Virus record (IMG/VR): IMGVR_UViG_2531839528_000015
Origin: a virus
Taxonomy: Duplodnaviria; Heunggongvirae; Uroviricota; Caudoviricetes
Strand: one strand, 5' to 3'
Length of the DNA stretch: 32,429 nt
A program made the position numbers and the translations under genes. Each line of letters begins with the position of its first letter. Position 1 is the first letter of the stretch. Shown here in pieces: positions 1 to 25,965 of this stretch. The notes under the pieces are model-generated. The model was given only the letters and a program-made list of their open reading frames with translations, was not told where the DNA came from and searched no databases.

Positions 1-452
1 AACACCAGCAAACAGATAAAAAAGGGCCAGCCAATTGGCCAGCCCTTCTTAACAGGATGTCGCTTAAGCGAAATCTTAGTTAAGACGCTCCCAATAAAAC
101 CACATAAAAAACATATAATTATAATAAAAACAATTAGTTAATTTAATTTTTAATGCAGTGAATTGCAATATTCTGCAACCTCCGCCGCCACTTTGCCGCC
201 ACTTAAAGCTTTATACCACACAGACTTTAGTATACCCGAGTGAAACGCTAACACATGAGGTAGTTGGAAAATTTCCGTATATGTTGTAATATTGATACGC
301 ATTATATGATTTTTACCTGATATAATGTAATTATTAGCTTCAAAATTATTTTTGCACGAATCAGGTATTACCAAGTAGTTGTCAGTTTTTAAAAACCCAA
401 CATCCTAAAATTAGCATTGTTTTTTAACCACAAAACATCCACGGAGAAGAAC

Positions 453-7934: not shown

Positions 7935-8008
7935 TTCATATCCATATCATGCACATACAGCAATCGCTCTATTCGTTTTTTTTCTTCCCATCTTTTGCCA
8001 ATACGTGC

Positions 8009-8028
8009 TACTGTATAAATATACAGTA
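8009..8028 (+). promoter_or_regulatory. LexA (SOS) box overlapping a promoter
   Basis: tactgtataaatatacagta is a near-perfect CTGT-N8-ACAG palindrome. A -35-like TTGCCA sits at 7995-8000 and a strong GGGAGG Shine-Dalgarno at 8036-8041. Confidence 0.7.
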
Positions 8029-8047
8029 ACCCTGTGGGAGGGATTTC

Positions 8048-8230
8048 ATGGTTGGCGAACATTTCAGCCGAACGCAGCAAAAGTGGGCTTGTGTGCAATT
8101 TATTGCCGAGGTATCTCTGATTGCAAACTGCAAGCCATCAGACTTAAAGCTCGCGCTCACTCTCATTGCAGACCTAGCAAACAGCGAGAATAACGAAACC
8201 GAAGATGATAATTTTTATAAGGCTGATTAG
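8048..8230 (+). CDS. Small SOS-controlled protein, possibly the N-terminal part of a Tum-like antirepressor
   Basis: 60-aa ORF directly behind the LexA box and GGGAGG. It ends at TAG 8228-8230 and is in the same frame as the DinI-like ORF that starts one codon later. Confidence 0.45.
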   Translation: MVGEHFSRTQQKWACVQFIAEVSLIANCKPSDLKLALTLIADLANSENNETEDDNFYKAD

Positions 8231-8233
8231 ATT

Positions 8234-8467
8234 ATGAGAATCAATATCACGTTGGATAAAGAGCAAAAAATTAGTCAGGCAACATTGGATGCACTTGAGG
8301 CTGAACTGTACCGCAATCTTCAACCTATTTACCCAAAGACTGCTATCCGAATTCGCAAGGGCTCCGCTAATGGCGTTGAACTAAGCGGTTTGAAACTGGA
8401 CGAAGATAAAAAACGAGTAATGGAAATCATGCAGCAGGTATGGGAGGACGATAGCTGGCTGCATTAA
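8234..8467 (+). CDS. DinI-family protein
   Basis: MRINITLDKEQKISQATLDALEAELYRNLQPIYP...EDKKRVMEIMQQVWEDDSW follows the E. coli DinI pattern (MRIEVTI...DALAGEL...EDKQRISEILQETWE). Confidence 0.8.
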   Translation: MRINITLDKEQKISQATLDALEAELYRNLQPIYPKTAIRIRKGSANGVELSGLKLDEDKKRVMEIMQQVWEDDSWLH

Positions 8468-8469
8468 CA

Positions 8470-8534
8470 AACGCCGCCGGTGCTGAAACTTGCTTTCAGT
8501 GCTGGCGGGGTTGAACAACTCGCACCGCGAGGCG
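8470..8534 (+). repeat. 65-bp stem-loop repeat, copy 1
   Basis: aacgccgccggtgctgaaacttgctttcagtgctggcggggttgaacaactcgcaccgcgaggcg. Begins 3 nt after the DinI-like stop. A 15-bp stem forms only as + strand RNA because it uses G-U pairs. Confidence 0.7.
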
Positions 8535-8662
8535 CTAGTTCTTCCTCTCAAAGTTTCTCGATGTTTTATTGGTTACACACCAGTGATGAATGGGACGTTA
8601 CCTTAGCGGGTTTTATAGTGGCGCTGTGGCAGCGCTAAATAAAATTCATTGAGGGCGATAAT

Positions 8663-8872
8663 ATGCATCGACTACCGGGCGAAATTCCGCAGCACAAAAC
8701 TAAAAGCATCAAACTGATGGCCATCGTTCATCGTCTGCAGCAGATAATGGTCAATGAGAATTTGACACCCGCCGAGCTGGTCGGGTGTGCCGAAATAGTC
8801 AGGGATAATTACGGCAAGCTGGATAGCATCAGCAAGCCGACACATTACTCACCGCCACCACGTCGACCATAG
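8663..8872 (+). CDS. Hypothetical small protein (cassette between the two repeats)
   Basis: 69-aa ORF with GAGGG seven nt upstream of the ATG. Confidence 0.45.
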   Translation: MHRLPGEIPQHKTKSIKLMAIVHRLQQIMVNENLTPAELVGCAEIVRDNYGKLDSISKPTHYSPPPRRP

Positions 8873-8874
8873 AT

Positions 8875-8939
8875 AACGCCGCCGGAGCTGAAACTCGCTT
8901 TCAGGTCTGGCGGGGTTGAACAACGAGCTACGCGAGGCG
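8875..8939 (+). repeat. 65-bp stem-loop repeat, copy 2
   Basis: aacgccgccggagctgaaactcgctttcaggtctggcggggttgaacaacgagctacgcgaggcg. Differs from copy 1 at about 8 of 65 positions and begins 3 nt after the stop of the 69-aa ORF. Confidence 0.7.
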
Positions 8940-9005
8940 TTAGCCGGTCATAGCGTCGCAAATACTTCAACCGTCTGCTGGTTAAATAATTCGAGGTTTT
9001 TGGAC

Positions 9006-9200
9006 ATGCAAAATCCCCTTTCATCGAAAAATGACCCGTTTGCCGATTGGGCAAAGAATCTGACTTTAATGGCTTTAAATAACGACCTGAGCTCTCGCGA
9101 GGTGGAAAGCTACACCGCAAAAATGGTCGGGCAGGCCGGTAAAGATGAGCTATCAGTCGTTATCAAACACCTGTTAAATCACATCAGAATGCGCAAATAA
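9006..9200 (+). CDS. Hypothetical small protein
   Basis: Track ORF 8916..9200 starts inside repeat 2. The internal ATG at 9006 with GAGG upstream is more plausible (MQNPLSSKNDPFADWAKNL...). Confidence 0.4.
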   Translation: MQNPLSSKNDPFADWAKNLTLMALNNDLSSREVESYTAKMVGQAGKDELSVVIKHLLNHIRMRK

Positions 9201-9216
9201 GAGGAACTATATAAAT

Positions 9217-9318
9217 ATGTTATCTCTCGTTTATGAAAATCCGTGGACGACGATTTTTCTGATGATTGTTGCCAGCATGTGCCTCAACAGTGTTATTGGC
9301 GCATTGCGCGGCCATTAA
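9217..9318 (+). CDS. Putative 33-aa hydrophobic peptide
   Basis: Translates to MLSLVYENPWTTIFLMIVASMCLNSVIGALRGH, with GAGGA upstream. One predicted transmembrane helix. The terminator follows directly. Too short for the ORF track. Confidence 0.3.
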   Translation: MLSLVYENPWTTIFLMIVASMCLNSVIGALRGH

Positions 9319-9338
9319 TCGCGACAAAACCAGACTAA

Positions 9339-9366
9339 AACCGGCACCCTGAATGCCGGTTTTTTT
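9339..9366 (+). terminator. Rho-independent terminator ending the rightward early/SOS transcription before cos
   Basis: aaccggca-ccctgaa-tgccggtt followed by a six-T run. Confidence 0.7.
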
Positions 9367-9526
9367 ATGCCATTTTTCCGCGAATTTCCCGTTTTTTAGT
9401 CGTGCATGCATCAGGTGCATGGTTTTGCATGCGTCAGTCTTGCCCGTTCTGTCCGTGCGCCGCCAGAGCTAGCGCGGATCCAGAGTTGTCATGCAACTGC
9501 ATTAAAACCGCCCCATAAAGCGGGCA

Positions 9527-9545
9527 GGCGTGGCGGGGAAAGCAT
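9527..9545. other. cos site (19-nt cohesive-end sequence, P2/186 type)
   Basis: ggcgtggcggggaaagcat matches the P2/186 cohesive-end sequence as I remember it (P2: GGCGAGGCGGGGAAAGCAC). It lies in a roughly 400-bp noncoding stretch. Confidence 0.6.
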
Positions 9546-9764
9546 TGCGCGCCAGCAGTGATGCGTAATAATAAAAATTATCCTCTGAGCGCGTCGTGAT
9601 GGCGCTGTCGTGGTCGCTGCTGGTTCGTTGGTGGTCGAGTGTGTTCGTGCGCGTGAGACGCATCTGATGCGTGATGGTGGTGTGCATGGAAAAGCCACCA
9701 GGAGCAGCGGCTTTACAGGAGTGGCAGGATTCAAACTGCTAATTATGTTTCTACTATGATTAAA

Positions 9765-10769
9765 CTAATTTACATGTATGTAGAGTTCACCGTCGCCAGA
9801 CCAATCGGGACACTCTAAAACAAGCCCAAACTGCTTGAATATTTCATCAATGATTATTGTTATCTCCCGAAAATCACCAAAACCTGTAATGTGCTGGTCA
9901 TTAAACTTCCCATAAAGATTCTGAAAAGCAATGCCTAATTCTGATAATTGATATCTTATCTTTGAGTTGGATAGTGTAAGGGATAGCTTTGGATCGTATT
10001 CTTTAATATTGATGTTTAGAGAATGGACATAACCCATCGCATAAGCATAAGAGTTGATGATTAGCCTGATACGTTTTTTTACTTCAAGATACATGTCATT
10101 CAGAGAAATATTACCGTACTTATAACCCCAGATGAGTTTTTCAATCTCGTCAGATACTTCATTTACAACAGTGTCAAGATTCTCTAAAAATAAATCGACA
10201 GTTTCTTGAGGGGCAGACCCCGAAGACATGTAATTAGCGAGATATTCAGACCATGCACGCGTGGCTGAGATAAGAAGCGCGCTACCATACTCGTTGACTG
10301 TAAAGTTTTGGGCTAAGCATGTTAGTAAGTTTTTTTCATGTACGTGCACTAATTCATGGTGAATGCGATGGATGACTGCGAGGTATCCTTCTTCTTTCAG
10401 TTTTAAGAAGCTACCATCATTGAAAAGCTCAACAAAAAAATCAATCGATAGCACAAGGGTATATTCTTCATATAGCCCATCATTGCCAATTTTTGTTACT
10501 AACTGCCCGACGGCTGCGCCCTGTTTGCTATTGGTAAATGAACTAGGGGATTTGTGTTGGTAAGAGGATGTTACCTTTTGAAGAGCTTCACTGAAGTTAT
10601 AGGAAACAATCACGCATTTTAATTTGGAGATATCAAGATTGAGATTCTTTGTTAAAGCTCGGATAGCTTCTAGTGTGAAATTACCGATATTATTTGCTTC
10701 TTGCTCAGTAGCGAAACCTTCGAGGGTTATTTTAAAATCAGTTTCCAAAATATTAATCTCCGCGCCCAT
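9765..10769 (-). CDS. Hypothetical AT-rich 334-aa protein with an HExxH motif, between cos and Q (candidate defence or exclusion cargo)
   Basis: ATG at 10767-10769. Asn/Ile/Leu/Glu-rich translation. HRIHHELVHVHE at residues 134-145 (nt 10344-10358). No Walker A motif and no transmembrane segment seen. Confidence 0.7.
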   Translation of the reverse strand: MGAEINILETDFKITLEGFATEQEANNIGNFTLEAIRALTKNLNLDISKLKCVIVSYNFSEALQKVTSSYQHKSPSSFTNSKQGAAVGQLVTKIGNDGLYEEYTLVLSIDFFVELFNDGSFLKLKEEGYLAVIHRIHHELVHVHEKNLLTCLAQNFTVNEYGSALLISATRAWSEYLANYMSSGSAPQETVDLFLENLDTVVNEVSDEIEKLIWGYKYGNISLNDMYLEVKKRIRLIINSYAYAMGYVHSLNINIKEYDPKLSLTLSNSKIRYQLSELGIAFQNLYGKFNDQHITGFGDFREITIIIDEIFKQFGLVLECPDWSGDGELYIHVN

Positions 10770-10787
10770 TGTTTTGATATTCGATGC

Positions 10788-10816
10788 ACTATAGCTTTCG
10801 CAGATTGCATCTTCAA
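10788..10816 (-). promoter_or_regulatory. Candidate sigma70 promoter for the 334-aa gene
   Basis: On the minus strand: -35 TTGAAG (complement of 10811-10816), 17-bp spacer, -10 TATAGT (complement of 10788-10793). It lies in the 78-bp gap below the Q stop. Confidence 0.4.
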
Positions 10817-10846
10817 TAATGAGCGCAGAGATTGTGGCGGCCTAAG

Positions 10847-11893
10847 TTATTCTGGGTTGTCGAGGGTGTACTCTTTGAATCTGATGACCTCCATGCCGAG
10901 CCAGTCATTTACCTCCCTGAACCTGTCCTGTAGCGGCGACAGCTCGTTGCGCACAAATACCTTTGCCACCTTCTCAACATCACCGAGTGAACCGATATTC
11001 TCGGGCTTGCCGCCCATGAGCTGGAACGGTACGCGGTGCGCGTCCATCAGATCGGCGGCACTGGCCTTCTTGATGTTGAAAAAGTCATCCTTTGTGGCGA
11101 CCTCGCTCAGTGGCACGATTTTGATGCCGTCCGGTTTTCCGCCGGGAGCGTAGAAAAACAGGTTCTTAAAGTTGCCGAGCCCTTTTGAGTTGCGCATCGC
11201 CTCGCGCAGCGATTCGACGTCGGTCGCGCTCTGCGCCGGGTCAGTCACATACATGATGTAGCCTGCGTGCGCGCCGTTCTGATAATACTTGCGGCGGAAC
11301 AGCGTCGCGGATTCATTCAGCCAAGCGGAATTAAGCGCGCTGAGATATTCCGGCAGACCGTAAATCTCCTGATTAATGTCGGGCTCCAGCAGGTGAAACA
11401 CGGTATCAGGCGCGAACTCGTGCGGCTGGGTGAAGTTTTCCACAAACCAGAAAATCGAATCGTCGACTCCGCGTCGGGTGTATTTGGCTGGCGAGGCCAG
11501 CAGTTTGATTAACTGGCCGGTGACGCTGTGGCGCTGCTCAAGAAAGGCGTTACCGAACACCAGATAATCGAGCGCAAAGCGGCTGAAATCCTGACGGGAT
11601 AACAACGGGTGCGGAATGTAGGTGCTCGCGAGCACGTTACGCTTAACATAAATTGGCGAGCTGTGATGCACGGCAGAGCGCAGGCTCTTTGCCAGCCCTG
11701 AGAAGCTGACCGGCGGCTCGTACCATTTGCCGTTACTGATGCACTCGACGTAATCCAGAATGTCGCGCTTATCGAGTACCGGCACCGGCTCGCCGAAGGT
11801 GAACGCTGTCGTTTTTGGCGGTGCGCTGGCGGTCAGTTGTTGTGGTTTGCTGGCCTTTTGTGCGTTGGCTTTACGGGATTTTTGTTTACCCAT
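10847..11893 (-). CDS. Q: Portal protein (P2 gpQ-like)
   Basis: 348 aa, the size and position of P2 Q, adjacent to and co-oriented with the large terminase. Confidence 0.9.
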   Translation of the reverse strand: MGKQKSRKANAQKASKPQQLTASAPPKTTAFTFGEPVPVLDKRDILDYVECISNGKWYEPPVSFSGLAKSLRSAVHHSSPIYVKRNVLASTYIPHPLLSRQDFSRFALDYLVFGNAFLEQRHSVTGQLIKLLASPAKYTRRGVDDSIFWFVENFTQPHEFAPDTVFHLLEPDINQEIYGLPEYLSALNSAWLNESATLFRRKYYQNGAHAGYIMYVTDPAQSATDVESLREAMRNSKGLGNFKNLFFYAPGGKPDGIKIVPLSEVATKDDFFNIKKASAADLMDAHRVPFQLMGGKPENIGSLGDVEKVAKVFVRNELSPLQDRFREVNDWLGMEVIRFKEYTLDNPE

Positions 11894-11894
11894 T

Positions 11895-13664
11895 TTAGTT
11901 GAACTCCAGAATAGATTTAGGCTGCATGCCGCTACCGGCAGAAAGCGGTTCGTTTAACAGGGCGTGCATGGTCGCCCATGCGATATCGGCGTGGCTGGCT
12001 TCCTCGGTGCGGCTGGCCTCATAGGTGGCGCAGCGCCCGCTGCTGGTCATGGTTTTGCGGATGGACATAAACGACTGCGTGACGTCGGTTGCTCCGGCGT
12101 CGTACTCCAGACAGCCACGGCGAATGGTGTCTTTCGCCTTGAGTACCATTGCGGTTTTCATTTCAGGTGTGTAACGGATGCCGCGTGCCGCCGGGTAAAA
12201 TGAGCGCACCAGCTGGAACACGCCGAGACCGAGGCCGGTTGCGTCAATGCCGATGTATTCGACGTTGTATTTCTCGGTCAGCTTGCGGATGCCCTCTGCC
12301 TGTGCTGCAAAATCCATGCCCTTCCACTGGTGGCGCTCCAGCATGCGGAACTTGCCACCAGAGACCACCGGCGGCGCGAGCACGACGCACCCGGCACTGT
12401 CGCCGGTGTGTGACGGGTCGTAGCCAATCCAGACAGGACGAGAGCCGAACGGATGGTCGGCGAACGGGGCAAAGTCCTCCCATTCCTCCATCACATCGAC
12501 CATGCAGCGCTGCAGCTCCTCGAACGGGAATACCGACGCTTTATCGTCGACAAACTCGCACATAAACAGGTTCTTAAAGTCCTCATCACTGTTTTCGCGT
12601 TTGAGCTGGTCGAGGTCGAACAGGGTGCAGCCACCCGCAAGGGCGTCCTCAATGGTGACAATCTGCCGCCACTGGCCATCGTCGCAGAGCTGGCCACCGG
12701 CGAGCGCGCTGTGACTGATGTCGATTTCGATGCGGTCGGCAATCCGGCTGCGCCCCTTGTTGAACAGCTCGCCAGACCAGAAGGGGTAAGCGCCGTGCGC
12801 CAGCGTGGAAGGTGTCGAAAAATAGGTCGAGCGCAGGTGCTTTTGCGAGGCCATGCCCGAGGCGACTTTGCGCAGTTTCTGAAAATTCGGGATCCAGAAT
12901 ATTTCATCGACATACAGATCGCCGTTATGGCTCTGCGCGGTGTTGGAATTGGTACCGAGAAAAATCAGTTTTGCGCCGTTGTTACCGATGACAATCGGGT
13001 CGCCAGTCAGGTCAACGTCGACCAGTCGCGCAAACTGGATGATGTATTCGCGGAACACGTAAGCCTGCGTTTTACTGGCTGATAAAAATATCTGGTTATG
13101 GCCGGTTTTGAGTGCGCGCAGCAGTGCCTCGCGGGAGAAATAGAATGTCGCGCCAATCTGGCGGGATTTGAGAATGTCACGAATACGGTGCTCCAGTCCT
13201 GCGCGGTACCACTGCAACTGGTACTCGAAAGACTGGTCGAAAAATAATTCCTCTAGTTTATCGATAGCCTCGTCGCTGAAAAAATTCTTTTTCGGCTTTT
13301 TGCGCTCCCCTTTGTTGCGGTTGGCGACGTTGGGGTTAAGGTCGGCTTCGTTGCCGGTCTGGCTGTAGCGGTTGACTCGCGCCAACCGTTCAATCTGCCG
13401 TCCGAGCAGGTCAATCTCTTTGAAATCACCCCCTGTCTTTTGCGGCTTGGCGATGAGCTGAATCAGCCTGGCCTCAAGGCTGCTTTCAACGCGGGAAATC
13501 GGCGCGATGCCGTCCCAGCCGTCGCGCTGCTTCCAGCTCTGCACGGTCGGGCGCTTGACCTGCAGCATTTCGGCAATCTGTGGCACGGAAAAACCCTGCC
13601 AGTAAAGCAGCGATGCCTGCCGTCGCGGGTCATGCAACAAGGTTGTATCGGTGGAAATGGTCAT
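11895..13664 (-). CDS. P: Terminase large subunit (P2 gpP-like)
   Basis: 589 aa, the size and position of P2 P, divergent from the capsid operon. Confidence 0.9.
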   Translation of the reverse strand: MTISTDTTLLHDPRRQASLLYWQGFSVPQIAEMLQVKRPTVQSWKQRDGWDGIAPISRVESSLEARLIQLIAKPQKTGGDFKEIDLLGRQIERLARVNRYSQTGNEADLNPNVANRNKGERKKPKKNFFSDEAIDKLEELFFDQSFEYQLQWYRAGLEHRIRDILKSRQIGATFYFSREALLRALKTGHNQIFLSASKTQAYVFREYIIQFARLVDVDLTGDPIVIGNNGAKLIFLGTNSNTAQSHNGDLYVDEIFWIPNFQKLRKVASGMASQKHLRSTYFSTPSTLAHGAYPFWSGELFNKGRSRIADRIEIDISHSALAGGQLCDDGQWRQIVTIEDALAGGCTLFDLDQLKRENSDEDFKNLFMCEFVDDKASVFPFEELQRCMVDVMEEWEDFAPFADHPFGSRPVWIGYDPSHTGDSAGCVVLAPPVVSGGKFRMLERHQWKGMDFAAQAEGIRKLTEKYNVEYIGIDATGLGLGVFQLVRSFYPAARGIRYTPEMKTAMVLKAKDTIRRGCLEYDAGATDVTQSFMSIRKTMTSSGRCATYEASRTEEASHADIAWATMHALLNEPLSAGSGMQPKSILEFN

Positions 13665-15831: not shown

Positions 15832-16581
15832 ATGACGAGCCCCGCACAGCGTCACATGATGCGGGTCTCGGCCTCTCAAGCCGCGCAGCGGGAGCAAGCC
15901 CCGCTGCGCCATGCAACCGCCTATGAGCAGATGCTGGTTAAGCTGGCCGATGACCGCCGCACGTTAAAAAACATCCGTTCAAACGAACGTAAAGCCGAGA
16001 AAAAGCGCGAGCTGCTGCCGTTCTATGCGCCGTGGGTCGCCGGTGTGCTGGCTGATGGCCGTGGTGCGCAGGATGACATTGTCATGACCGTCATGCTGTG
16101 GCGTCTCGATGCCGGTGATATCGCTGGCGCGCTGGAAATTGCCCCGTACGCGCTGAAATACGGCCTCACCTCTGACCACCGCCGCACAACACCTTACATG
16201 CTGGTTGAGGAAGTGGCGCTTGCTGCGCAGCGCCTGCGCGATGCCGGTGAGTCTGTCGACCTTTCCTGGCTGCAGACCACTATCGACCTGACCGACGGCG
16301 CTGACGTTCCCGATATGGTGCGCGCCCGTCTGCATAAGGTGACAGGCCTGACCCTGCGTGATGCCGGTATGAATGCAGAGGCGCTGGCGCAGTTTCAGCG
16401 CGCGATGCAGCTCGACCGCAATGCCGGTGTGCGCAAGGAGATTGAGCGACTGGAACGGGCATTGAAGCCAAAGCCAGAGGCCGCGCCCCGTAAAACGACT
16501 AAACCGCGCACGCGCAAACCTGCCAACAAACCGGCGGCAAAGCGCGGGCGTCCACCAAAGGCGGTAAAAACCGCCGGTTAA
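15832..16581 (+). CDS. M: Terminase small (endonuclease) subunit (P2 gpM-like)
   Basis: 249 aa with a basic Lys/Arg/Pro-rich C-terminus, positioned after N. Confidence 0.85.
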   Translation: MTSPAQRHMMRVSASQAAQREQAPLRHATAYEQMLVKLADDRRTLKNIRSNERKAEKKRELLPFYAPWVAGVLADGRGAQDDIVMTVMLWRLDAGDIAGALEIAPYALKYGLTSDHRRTTPYMLVEEVALAAQRLRDAGESVDLSWLQTTIDLTDGADVPDMVRARLHKVTGLTLRDAGMNAEALAQFQRAMQLDRNAGVRKEIERLERALKPKPEAAPRKTTKPRTRKPANKPAAKRGRPPKAVKTAG

Positions 16582-19721: not shown

Positions 19722-20597
19722 CTAGCCTCGTAAATATCGTTTAGTAAATTTCGTGTTTGGTCTGGATGATAGGATTTGTCTTTCTATTTCACTATCACAG
19801 TCTATATAGTCTAGTGTATTAGCTTCTATAAGTTTGTTCACGTCAATATTTTTTGCATCGATTATGTTGGCATTTCTAAGGTTTGCATTGGTGTATTCCA
19901 CTTTATCCAAATCACACTCTCTGAGTACGCAACTTTTCATTTCCGCATTGGAAAAATCCCCACCATATAAATAGCAGCCTTCAAAAATAACACCGTTTAA
20001 CTTTGAATCCTGAGCTTTAATATTTTTTATTTTACACTTTATAAATTTTACGTTTTTCATTTTGCTCTTGCTAATATTTAATGCCTGGATTGTACATCCA
20101 GTGAAAGAACAGTCTCTTATGTTAGATTTTTCCATATTTAACCCAGATAGTTCTGAGGTTTTAAAGTGTAAGTATTTAATGGTAAAAAGGTCACCCAACT
20201 CCATTCTGGGTATGTCTATATTGAAGACACCTTTATTGTTGAGCTGTCTTATTATTTTTATTTTTTGTATTTTCAAATCAACATTAACGTGCTTAGCTAA
20301 GTTTCCCAAATCCTCAAGAAGTTCATTAATCGTTTCTTTGTTTTGTCTTCTGTATTCAAAGTAATAAAGGATGACACCTAATACAAAAAAATCCAAAATG
20401 GATGAATTTGCATTTATTAGGAACCCAGACAGGAATGAATCATTGTAATTACCATAGTGTATAGAGGCAAGTGTTACGCCAAATGCATATAAAATAAAAA
20501 TAATAAACACGTGCTTCATTTTGCATAAGGATTGTATTATTGGTTTTATGGCATCAATTTTGTTCATTGCTGCAGCAGCGAAAGATTTAAAAGTCAT
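19722..20597 (-). CDS. Membrane-anchored pentapeptide-repeat protein (AT-rich moron at the P2 orf30 position between S and V)
   Basis: 291 aa. Two hydrophobic helices (VFIIFILYAFGVTLASI and ILDFFVLGVILYYF), then pentapeptide-repeat-like sequence (NISKSKMKNVKFIKCKIKNIKAQDSKLNGVIFEGCYLYGGDFSNAEMKSCVLRECDLDKVEYTNANLRNANII). Opposite strand to both neighbours. Confidence 0.7.
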   Translation of the reverse strand: MTFKSFAAAAMNKIDAIKPIIQSLCKMKHVFIIFILYAFGVTLASIHYGNYNDSFLSGFLINANSSILDFFVLGVILYYFEYRRQNKETINELLEDLGNLAKHVNVDLKIQKIKIIRQLNNKGVFNIDIPRMELGDLFTIKYLHFKTSELSGLNMEKSNIRDCSFTGCTIQALNISKSKMKNVKFIKCKIKNIKAQDSKLNGVIFEGCYLYGGDFSNAEMKSCVLRECDLDKVEYTNANLRNANIIDAKNIDVNKLIEANTLDYIDCDSEIERQILSSRPNTKFTKRYLRG

Positions 20598-24635: not shown

Positions 24636-25200
24636 TATCCGGCGCGGTGCTGGTATCTGTTGCCGTCACCGCGTCAATGTAATCCAGCACGGCGTTAAGT
24701 CGGGTTGTTTCTGCCTGAGTCAGTTTCCGTCCGGCCTGTAATTTCAGCTGAATCAGACTGATGGAAGCCATTGCAGCATCAATCAGTGACTGGCGCTGTG
24801 CTTCTGCCGCTTCTACTGCGGCACCGTGTTGTGCCTCAGTATCTGTCACCCATTTCTCACCATCCCATTTATCATATGGCGTTAACGGTGAAATCGTGAC
24901 ATAACCGTCTTTGATGGCACCGATATAATCCACTGTAACAGCTGCGCCATTTTCGATTAAGTAAACAGTCTCATTGCGATGGTCTTCTTCATGGCTCCAT
25001 CCCTTACCTGTAAATACTGCCACTCTTCCCGGAATGTTTTCGCCAGGGTCAATACCAGTGGAACAGGCGGGCATACTTACGCCAGTATTAATATATTCAT
25101 CAGACCAGCCCGTATACTCAGATGTTTCAGCATCATAATAAAAACAACGCATATCGCCCGGCACTGTAGCCAGCCCATTTTCATCAAAAACAGGTTTCAT
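24607..25200 (-). CDS. Alternative tail fibre assembly chaperone (Tfa') in the inverted orientation
   Basis: 197 aa. C-terminus ...LDYIDAVTATDTSTAPDIIWPELP. Converges on and overlaps the Tfa 3' end. Confidence 0.75.
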   Translation of the reverse strand: MKPVFDENGLATVPGDMRCFYYDAETSEYTGWSDEYINTGVSMPACSTGIDPGENIPGRVAVFTGKGWSHEEDHRNETVYLIENGAAVTVDYIGAIKDGYVTISPLTPYDKWDGEKWVTDTEAQHGAAVEAAEAQRQSLIDAAMASISLIQLKLQAGRKLTQAETTRLNAVLDYIDAVTATDTSTAPDIIWPELPEA

Positions 25201-25652
25201 TATTTAGCCCTCACCAGAAAGTTAAATGCAATATTTCGCGGTCTGACAGCAACAAAATTCACACCATCACCCACAGAGTTACTGGTGAAATTAAATCGTG
25301 AAAATCCTGGCTGATTTCCGGCGATGCCATCATGAAAGTTAATTGCGTGTCCCGCACCTCCGCCTATATTCCCGGCAAACTGAGAAAAGTTTGTAGCTTC
25401 CTGCCAGCTTAATAATTCGCGACCACCGTCTGCACCTCGCCCGTCATCCCAGATACGAATGAAATCACCGCGGGCTTCAGGTAATACCAGCGAAGGAAAC
25501 ACTTTCGCCAGCACAGGATAATCAGTGGCAGAGAATTTCGCGCCGTTGAACTTCAAAAACACCATACTGGACCAGCTGTCGATTACAGTATTTGGCATTG
25601 CAGCGGACGGCCAGAAGAACGGAACGCCAATAGCTGGAGCACCTTCTCCCAA
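25200..25652 (-). CDS. Silent alternative tail-fibre C-terminal segment (Hv')
   Basis: 150-aa frame with no ATG (the track start is TTG). It opens LGEGAPAIG directly inside crossover site 2, and an in-frame stop lies just upstream, so it is expressed only after inversion. Confidence 0.7.
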   Translation of the reverse strand: MGEGAPAIGVPFFWPSAAMPNTVIDSWSSMVFLKFNGAKFSATDYPVLAKVFPSLVLPEARGDFIRIWDDGRGADGGRELLSWQEATNFSQFAGNIGGGAGHAINFHDGIAGNQPGFSRFNFTSNSVGDGVNFVAVRPRNIAFNFLVRAK

Positions 25653-25670
25653 ACCAACCTTTTAGAAAAC
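25645..25670. other. Candidate invertase crossover site 2, inverted relative to site 1
   Basis: Reverse complement gttttctaaaaggttggtttgggagaa matches site 1 at about 21 of 27 positions. Central dinucleotide is AA on the + strand. Confidence 0.55.
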
Positions 25671-25723
25671 GCAGATATTCCGTTCAGCTGGCATGATCCC
25701 GACTTTTTACCGGGTTATTTCTC

Positions 25724-25965
25724 ATGTTTATCGGTTATGTACGTGTATCAACAAATGACCAGAACACCGCATTACAGCGAAATGAACTGGAGTGCGCAGG
25801 ATGTGAGCTGATTTTCGAAGATAAAATCAGCGGCAAAACATCAGACTGGCCGGGCTAAAGAGGTTACTCAGAACCTTGTCAGAGGGCGATACGCTTGTGG
25901 TCTGGAAACTGGATCGCCTCGGGTATCTCAACGCTATACAAAAAATTTCCCGCATCCGTTGCTGA
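25724..25965 (+). pseudogene. Serine DNA invertase (Hin/Gin/Cin/Pin family) remnant, frameshifted and C-terminally truncated
   Basis: ATG 25724 gives MFIGYVRVSTNDQNTALQRNELECAGCELIFEDKISGKTSDWPG, then TAA at 25856. A second frame continues GDTLVVWKLDRLG to TGA at 25963-25965. The HTH domain is missing, and only about 80 of the expected 190 residues are present. Confidence 0.75.

Follow-up and report, generated by a model that had tools for sequence, protein, structure and literature searches.

The stretch of DNA considered here, which comprises 32,429 nucleotides and is referred to below as the window, carries a P2-family prophage in which a spacer separates a group of small genes, including an SOS module, from a 334-aa gene that adjoins the portal gene. 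The question raised by this locus is whether the spacer holds the packaging site (cos) of the prophage, since locating cos fixes the virion map, that is, which accessory genes are situated at which end of the packaged DNA.

The answer begins from a 19-mer, GGCGTGGCGGGGAAAGCAT, located at 9527-9545 on the plus strand, which occurs once in the 32.4-kb window and has no further match there even when three mismatches are allowed. Exactly the same 19 bases form positions 1-19 of the phage 186 record U32222, where they are annotated as 'cos; cohesive end' with the top strand cut at the 5' end and the bottom strand cut at the 3' end, and positions 1-19 of the PSP3 record AY135486, whose annotation reads 'identical to 186 cos'. 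The cohesive ends of P2 and P4, GGCGAGGCGGGGAAAGCAC, agree with the 19-mer at 17 of 19 positions, from which the window departs by an A to T substitution at position 5 and a C to T substitution at position 19, and the P2-family cos pattern GGCG(A/T)GGCGGGGAAAGCA(C/T) is satisfied in its 186/PSP3 variant. A preliminary description of this DNA had stated that the 19-mer matches the P2/186 cohesive end, which is exact as regards 186 (19/19) and approximate as regards P2 (17/19).

The resemblance extends well beyond the 19-mer. Positions 9300-9800 were compared by megablast with 50,697 phage records, of which 33 Peduoviridae records matched, and the alignments of 186, PSP3, SEN1 and EtG all begin at record position 1, corresponding exactly to window position 9527. 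Alignment with the cos regions of P2 and 186 brought both the 19-mer and its flanks into register, again as the 186/PSP3 variant. It might be objected that the 19-mer could be a chance resemblance within an ordinary intergenic spacer; however, the exact match at 19 of 19 positions stands against an expectation of 0.02 matches in dinucleotide-preserving shuffles even with three mismatches allowed, more than 300 bp of flanking sequence is homologous to 186/PSP3, and the synteny is kept in 94 of 94 portal-bearing contigs among the matches listed, which leaves this explanation scarcely credible. Chance resemblance was refuted by the exact match, the flanking homology and the identity with the ends of the phage records.

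With a probability of about 0.92, judged from these sequence comparisons, 9527-9545 is the cos of a 186-like, P2-family (Peduoviridae) prophage of ~32.8 kb in Escherichia coli. As far as sequence and position can define orthology, the site is the orthologue of the experimentally defined cos of 186, and its identity with the latter, together with the conserved core described below, makes it very probable that it would be cut by the prophage's own terminase to yield 19-nt 5' cohesive ends. The top strand is predicted to be nicked 5' of 9527 and the bottom strand after 9545, which would leave 5' overhangs.

Anatomy and conservation of the cos region

The joined right and left ends of 186, PSP3, P2 and P4 were aligned with the window, and homology to 186/PSP3 was found to span ~9387 to ~9720, with ~140 bp to the left of the cut and ~175 bp, including the terminator tW, to its right. 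Within this span, the conserved core at 9491-9552 (plus strand) harbors two TGCA(T/A) elements (9491-9502), a short CCGCCCC...GCGGG hairpin, the 19-mer and a TGCGCGC motif. The core is near-invariant both across 111 unique cos regions and across 83 diverse representatives, which are less than 90% identical to each other and include satellites, and this near-invariance extends to portal-less, satellite-like contigs; the window has the consensus base at every highly conserved column of both sets. According to PMC5694545 and PMC9594776, which cite Ziermann and Calendar (1990), P2 and P4 share a 55-bp cos core, to which the window core at 9491-9552 corresponds.

When the 83 representatives are aligned with gaps, strong conservation outside the core is confined to one block, GGTGCATGGTTTTGCATGCG, located at 9414-9432 (plus strand), which carries two further TGCAT elements ~100-112 bp to the left of the cut and is conserved in 186, PSP3, P2 and P4. 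This distal block is regarded as a candidate terminase recognition element. On the opposite side, the G/T-rich right flank (9553-9690, plus strand) is ~85% identical to 186/PSP3, is conserved only among phages of the 186/PSP3 type, and is absent from P4. Among the matches listed, sixteen loci with cargo between cos and the portal gene Q were compared, namely fourteen contigs with an expanded gap and two that carry the cargo gene and end before the portal gene; in nine of the sixteen, as in P4, the right-side homology is lost within ~25-40 bases of the first base of the 19-mer. The part of the right flank that lies outside the core is, on this evidence, probably dispensable for recognition.

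The region is delimited by two terminators. A strong bidirectional intrinsic terminator at 9337-9363, composed of a 12-bp stem and a T-run, closes the right-end operon; it folds with -14.2 kcal/mol (z -3.5) on one strand and -15.9 kcal/mol (z -3.2) on the other, and is the positional equivalent of the annotated t95b of 186. At 9691-9717 on the minus strand lies a tW/tQ-like terminator of the leftward late operon, which was aligned with 186 tW and was also recovered by a terminator scan. Its hairpin (-11.5 to -11.8 kcal/mol, z -1.1) is weaker than the 186 counterpart (-15.1 kcal/mol, z -4.6). An Rfam scan of 9200-9900 gave no match above threshold, and the sub-threshold matches were driven by the terminator. 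The GC content at 9400-9700 is 0.55-0.57, compared with 0.32-0.45 in the flanking cargo and 0.55-0.63 in the phage backbone, so that the region, which had been called GC-rich, deserves that term relative to the neighboring cargo but is about equal to the backbone.

The same region had been described as otherwise noncoding. The sole annotated ORF over cos is the 61-aa PGAP 'hypothetical protein' WP_000557532.1 (9502-9687, minus strand), and a similar CDS is present in vB_EcoM-613R3, from which it could be argued that the conservation is explained by protein coding. That explanation is very unlikely, in view of the conservation itself, which peaks over the cos core without a codon pattern, and of the curated 186, PSP3 and P2 records, which annotate no gene there. 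Moreover, the start codon is missing in most relatives, and in-frame stops are found in PSP3, P2 and several other relatives including IMG/VR contigs; on these two grounds the ORF was rejected as a real gene and the region is held to be noncoding, in agreement with the earlier description. WP_000557532.1 is probably a mis-annotation, and RefSeq, which now calls the cos region a 61-aa hypothetical protein, would benefit from its correction.

The prophage and the two ends of its DNA

Four complete E. coli genomes, for instance that of JKHS016, match the window with 100% identity over the tested region 8000-11900 (3.9 kb). In E. coli the prophage is integrated between rplS and yfiB, and a 13-bp direct repeat, found at window positions 78-90 and at the 3' end of rplS, bounds an element of ~32.8 kb, although a repeat of this length is short. 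The size lies between those of 186 (30.6 kb) and P2 (33.6 kb). The RefSeq gene order in JKHS016 is the one canonical for P2/186 and runs int, CI, cII, fil, B, A, a small ORF, DinI, further small ORFs, the position of cos, a hypothetical gene and the portal gene, followed by the terminase ATPase, scaffold, capsid, terminase endonuclease subunit, L, lysis genes, tail genes and D. Between the att repeat at 78-90 (attL) and the integrase gene, a hypothetical 269-aa gene is located at ~453-1262 on the plus strand; the attL-int interval has been described as a minor cargo position in P2-like prophages (PMC13586616). Around cos itself, the order in the window is A, tum, cos, (cargo), Q and P, with Q transcribed towards cos.

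The left-of-cos content, consisting of A, the LexA box, tumA, DinI/tumB and small ORFs, matches the right end of the 186/PSP3 map. The LexA box TACTGTATAAATATACAGTA at 8009-8028 (plus strand) is perfect and is the only CTGT-N8-ACAG match in the window; it is situated upstream of the tumA-like gene, where it starts the right-end SOS operon, and is equivalent to p95/LexA of 186, whose record annotates a LexA site before tum. The tumA-like gene (8048-8230, plus strand) is 98% identical to PSP3 TumA, and the DinI/tumB gene (8234-8467, plus strand) matches Pfam DinI with E=7e-24. The window thus has tum in two parts, tumA and tumB, which is also its state in PSP3, whereas 186 has a fused gene, and BLASTP of the tumA-like protein against the fused 186 Tum gave no alignment. 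The preliminary description had treated the SOS module and the small cassettes together as right-end cargo, of which the right-end position stands; the SOS module, however, is the conserved prophage-induction switch of 186/PSP3-type phages and is not free cargo.

Downstream of this switch, all on the plus strand, are a 69-aa ORF (8663-8872) that is 93% identical to PSP3 gp37, a right-end cassette ORF (8916-9200) whose length of 64-94 aa varies with the choice of start codon, and a 33-aa hydrophobic ORF, MLSLVYENPWTTIFLMIVASMCLNSVIGALRGH (9217-9318), which has a good Shine-Dalgarno sequence and directly precedes the bidirectional terminator. The last of these is unannotated, shows no family match, and could be a small membrane peptide, while the PHROG matches of the right-end small ORFs are of unknown function. 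The 69-aa ORF is bracketed by a 69-nt direct repeat (8470-8538 and 8875-8943, plus strand) whose copies are 87% identical. Each copy starts just past a stop codon, that of DinI/tumB or that of the 69-aa ORF, and holds a GC-rich hairpin. The repeat may be a terminator or a cassette-boundary element that promotes the exchange of right-end cassettes.

To the right of cos, the tW-like terminator, the 334-aa ORF, the portal gene and the large terminase gene follow one another on the minus strand. The portal gene, which is the homologue of P2 Q and 186 W (10847-11893, minus strand; Pfam Phage_portal; PGAP 'phage portal protein'), is open and encodes a product 94% identical to 186 W. It is followed by the large terminase gene of the gpP type (11895-13664, minus strand), which matches Pfam Terminase_5, Terminase_6N and Terminase_6C and comprises an N-terminal HTH, an ATPase and an RNaseH-like nuclease domain, whereas the small terminase gene of the gpM type (15832-16581, plus strand; Pfam Phage_term_smal, E=1e-40; PGAP 'terminase endonuclease subunit') is encoded on the other strand. 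Both terminase subunits are therefore present in cis at full length, and the packaging and head genes Q, P, O, N, M and L are all annotated as intact. Further along the late genes, a pentapeptide-repeat gene (~19722-20597, minus strand), inserted in the reverse direction, separates the tail-completion (R/S-type) genes from baseplate gene V and constitutes another cargo slot inside the late genes. In the tail-fibre inversion region at ~25200-25925 a tail-protein gene is truncated and a recombinase (invertase) gene is a frameshifted pseudogene, owing to which the invertible tail-fibre segment is probably locked and full viability of the phage is not guaranteed.

Since P4-like satellites have the same core, it may be asked whether cos belongs to an adjacent satellite and not to the prophage. 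Among the matches listed, 26 of 120 contigs are indeed without a detectable portal gene, of which at least five end near cos. In the window, however, cos has as its direct neighbors gene A of the P2 family with the tum module to the left, and the portal and terminase genes to the right, the prophage order is canonical with no P4 genes (psu, sid, delta, alpha) in the annotation, and the 186-type variant of the 19-mer fits the 186-type portal, all of which makes a satellite origin exceedingly improbable.

The main residual alternative accepts the site as a true cos by descent but holds that the prophage is defective and packages nothing, so that the site would be a fossil. The pseudogenes in the tail-fibre and invertase region and the weakened late-operon terminator speak in its favor. 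It is nevertheless considered unlikely: the packaging and head genes from Q to L are annotated as intact, the cos core has the consensus at all highly conserved positions, a length of ~32.8 kb suits a capsid of P2 size, and invertase remnants are not essential for the growth of P2-like phages.

If the cos of the prophage is functional, as preferred here, its use can be pictured by analogy with 186 and P2. SOS induction would operate through the LexA box, after which tumA/tumB would act against CI, and the prophage would excise and replicate from gene A. The gpM-type small and gpP-type large terminase subunits would then recognize a region of ~140 bp, made up of the block at 9414-9432 and the core at 9491-9552, and nick the two strands 19 bp apart. 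The left virion end would accordingly begin with the 5' overhang, followed by the terminator, the 334-aa gene, the portal gene and the terminase gene, while the right virion end would carry A, tumA, DinI and the small ORFs. A cut at cos would therefore place the 334-aa gene first at the left end, and tum/DinI with the small ORFs last at the right end.

The 334-aa cargo gene and the cos-Q interval

The 334-aa gene (9765-10769, minus strand) is AT-rich and lies between the portal stop codon and the tW-like terminator. Homology to 186 ends at ~9722, just past the terminator, and is followed by the 334-aa ORF, a 77-bp spacer and the portal stop at 10847, so that the cos-to-portal gap amounts to 1301 bp, of which ~1.1 kb (the 334-aa gene and its spacers) is inserted. 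The gene is an insertion that falls precisely between the stop codon of the portal gene and the terminator of the late operon. The proposal that it is left-end cargo between cos and Q is borne out by the gene order to the right of cos and by the 186 W-like portal.

Two modes of expression can be considered for this gene. As the cargo gene is co-oriented with Q and P, lies upstream of the terminator, and is separated from the portal gene by a spacer in which the terminator scan revealed no terminator-like site, it should be transcribed by read-through from the late P-Q operon up to the tW-like hairpin. In addition, the 77-bp portal-cargo spacer contains a sigma-70 promoter-like site, TTGAAG-17-TATAGT (10788-10816, minus strand), which is a consensus match in a region where such sites are no more numerous than expected by chance; it is possible that this site serves as the cargo's own promoter for lysogenic expression.

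The frequency of such insertions was estimated by scanning IMG/VR for the 19-mer with the P2 and 186 variants allowed, which returned at least 120 contigs. Among the matches listed, all 94 portal-bearing contigs have their portal gene to the right of cos, encoded on the minus strand, and the cos-portal gap is 157-179 bp (median 169) in 80 of these. The remaining fourteen of the 94 portal-bearing contigs listed have gaps of 380-3205 bp, one of which shows the same 1301-bp arrangement, and insertions are commoner with a 186-type cos (9/30) than with a P2-type cos (5/62) among the matches listed. Variable gene content is therefore found at a fixed position between conserved core genes, and occupancy of the cos-Q slot is a recurrent minority state.

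The cargo gene itself was detected in 26 of 5426 complete E. coli genomes, in which it always adjoins the portal gene. The cos-cargo-portal arrangement is shared by these 26 genomes, by vB_EcoM-613R3 and, among the IMG/VR matches listed, by contig L127, while two further IMG/VR contigs (L045 and L074) contain cos and the cargo gene and end before the portal gene. A tblastn search of the cargo protein against 50,697 phage records recovered only vB_EcoM-613R3, whose record covers 45 kb and is marked 'partial genome', for which reason it is by itself no proof of packaging. Carriers of the same Q-side cargo differ in their A-side cassettes; the two sides of cos therefore appear to exchange their content independently, which is what the placement of cos between them brings to light. 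Homologues in Shewanella and Kosakonia reside in variable regions other than P2-like cos-Q contexts, so the cargo gene is not intrinsically tied to this slot.

As for the protein, a motif of the HExxH type (H138-E139-L-V-H142) is kept without change in 27 homologues, whose identity reaches down to 41%; it lies in helix 126-148 of the structure model, within the sequence HHELVHVHE. E145 and E175, the latter in the motif WSEY, are likewise invariant in the 27 homologues and are candidate third zinc ligands. A zincin-like (gluzincin-like) fold is predicted, and fold similarity to solved zincins was found for the 334-aa protein; Foldseek against the PDB yielded no significant match, and a sequence profile search of the PDB produced only noise. 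No Pfam or NCBIfam family was assigned, and the PADLOC defence models gave no match at E up to 0.1. The protein belongs to phrog_11743, of unknown function, and its 78 database relatives, which come from Enterobacterales, Shewanella and Psychromonas, are all termed 'hypothetical'; a literature search for its accession numbers and PHROG id retrieved nothing.

A more far-reaching reading, which is put forward tentatively and which we regard as rather doubtful, would combine these observations. The Q side of cos would form a slot separate from the A side, where old and tin reside, with Q-side insertions landing either between the portal stop and the late terminator or directly after cos +26, and the 334-aa protein would be a zincin-type effector of a kind not yet described, such as a protease serving anti-phage defence or lysogenic conversion; its gene would be expressed in the lysogen from a promoter of its own and, during lytic growth, through late read-through. 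Whatever its role, an uncharacterised HExxH protein in a known defence hotspot is a candidate for testing.

Comparison with known P2-family systems

The closest counterparts of this locus are 186 and PSP3, which resemble the window in the 19-mer, the homologous flanks, the tum/SOS module at the right end, and the portal and terminase genes at the left end. They differ from it in the gap beside the portal gene. In 186 and PSP3 the portal stop is located 8-10 bp beyond the terminator and ~177 bp from cos, in contrast with 1301 bp in the window; the P2 portal stop likewise lies 8-10 bp beyond its terminator, and in all three phages the distance to cos is ~170-180 bp. P2 and P4 share with the window the core from about -36 to +26 of the top-strand cut, the distal TGCAT block and the orientation relative to Q, whereas the window right flank beyond +26 is unrelated to P4 and weakly related to P2.

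P2-like phages have a recognized defence hotspot between gpA and gpQ, described as 'adjacent to the cos site' (Rousset et al. 2022, PMC9122126; NAR 2026, PMC13586616). Both the right-end cassettes and the 334-aa gene of the window fall within this hotspot, beside cos. Both papers regard A-Q as a single interval. In P2 the classic cargo (old, tin) occupies the A side, while the window has cargo on both sides of cos, and its Q-side gene matches no known defence model.

The cosL-Q interval has also been proposed as a hotspot of foreign genes, as set out in PMC5694545, which cites Dodd and Egan (1996) and Nakayama (1999), and ORF1-4 of phiRSY1 lie between cosL and the Q homologue. The classic precedent is phiCTX, in whose record ctx occupies 362-1222, between cosL (1-21) and Q (1417-2469). 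There, ctx and Q are on different strands, and ctx is equipped with a promoter and terminators of its own, whereas the window cargo runs in the same direction as Q and precedes the operon terminator; phiCTX and phiRSY1 further differ from the window in their hosts and their cargo.

Given the published A-Q hotspot, the cosL-Q proposal and the ctx gene of phiCTX, this kind of packaging site and this insertion slot are both already known and well described, and the existing knowledge of P2/186 packaging is unchanged. Compared with these systems, the window is only mildly novel, in its uncharacterised HExxH cargo protein and in the evidence for the Q side of cos as a slot of its own.
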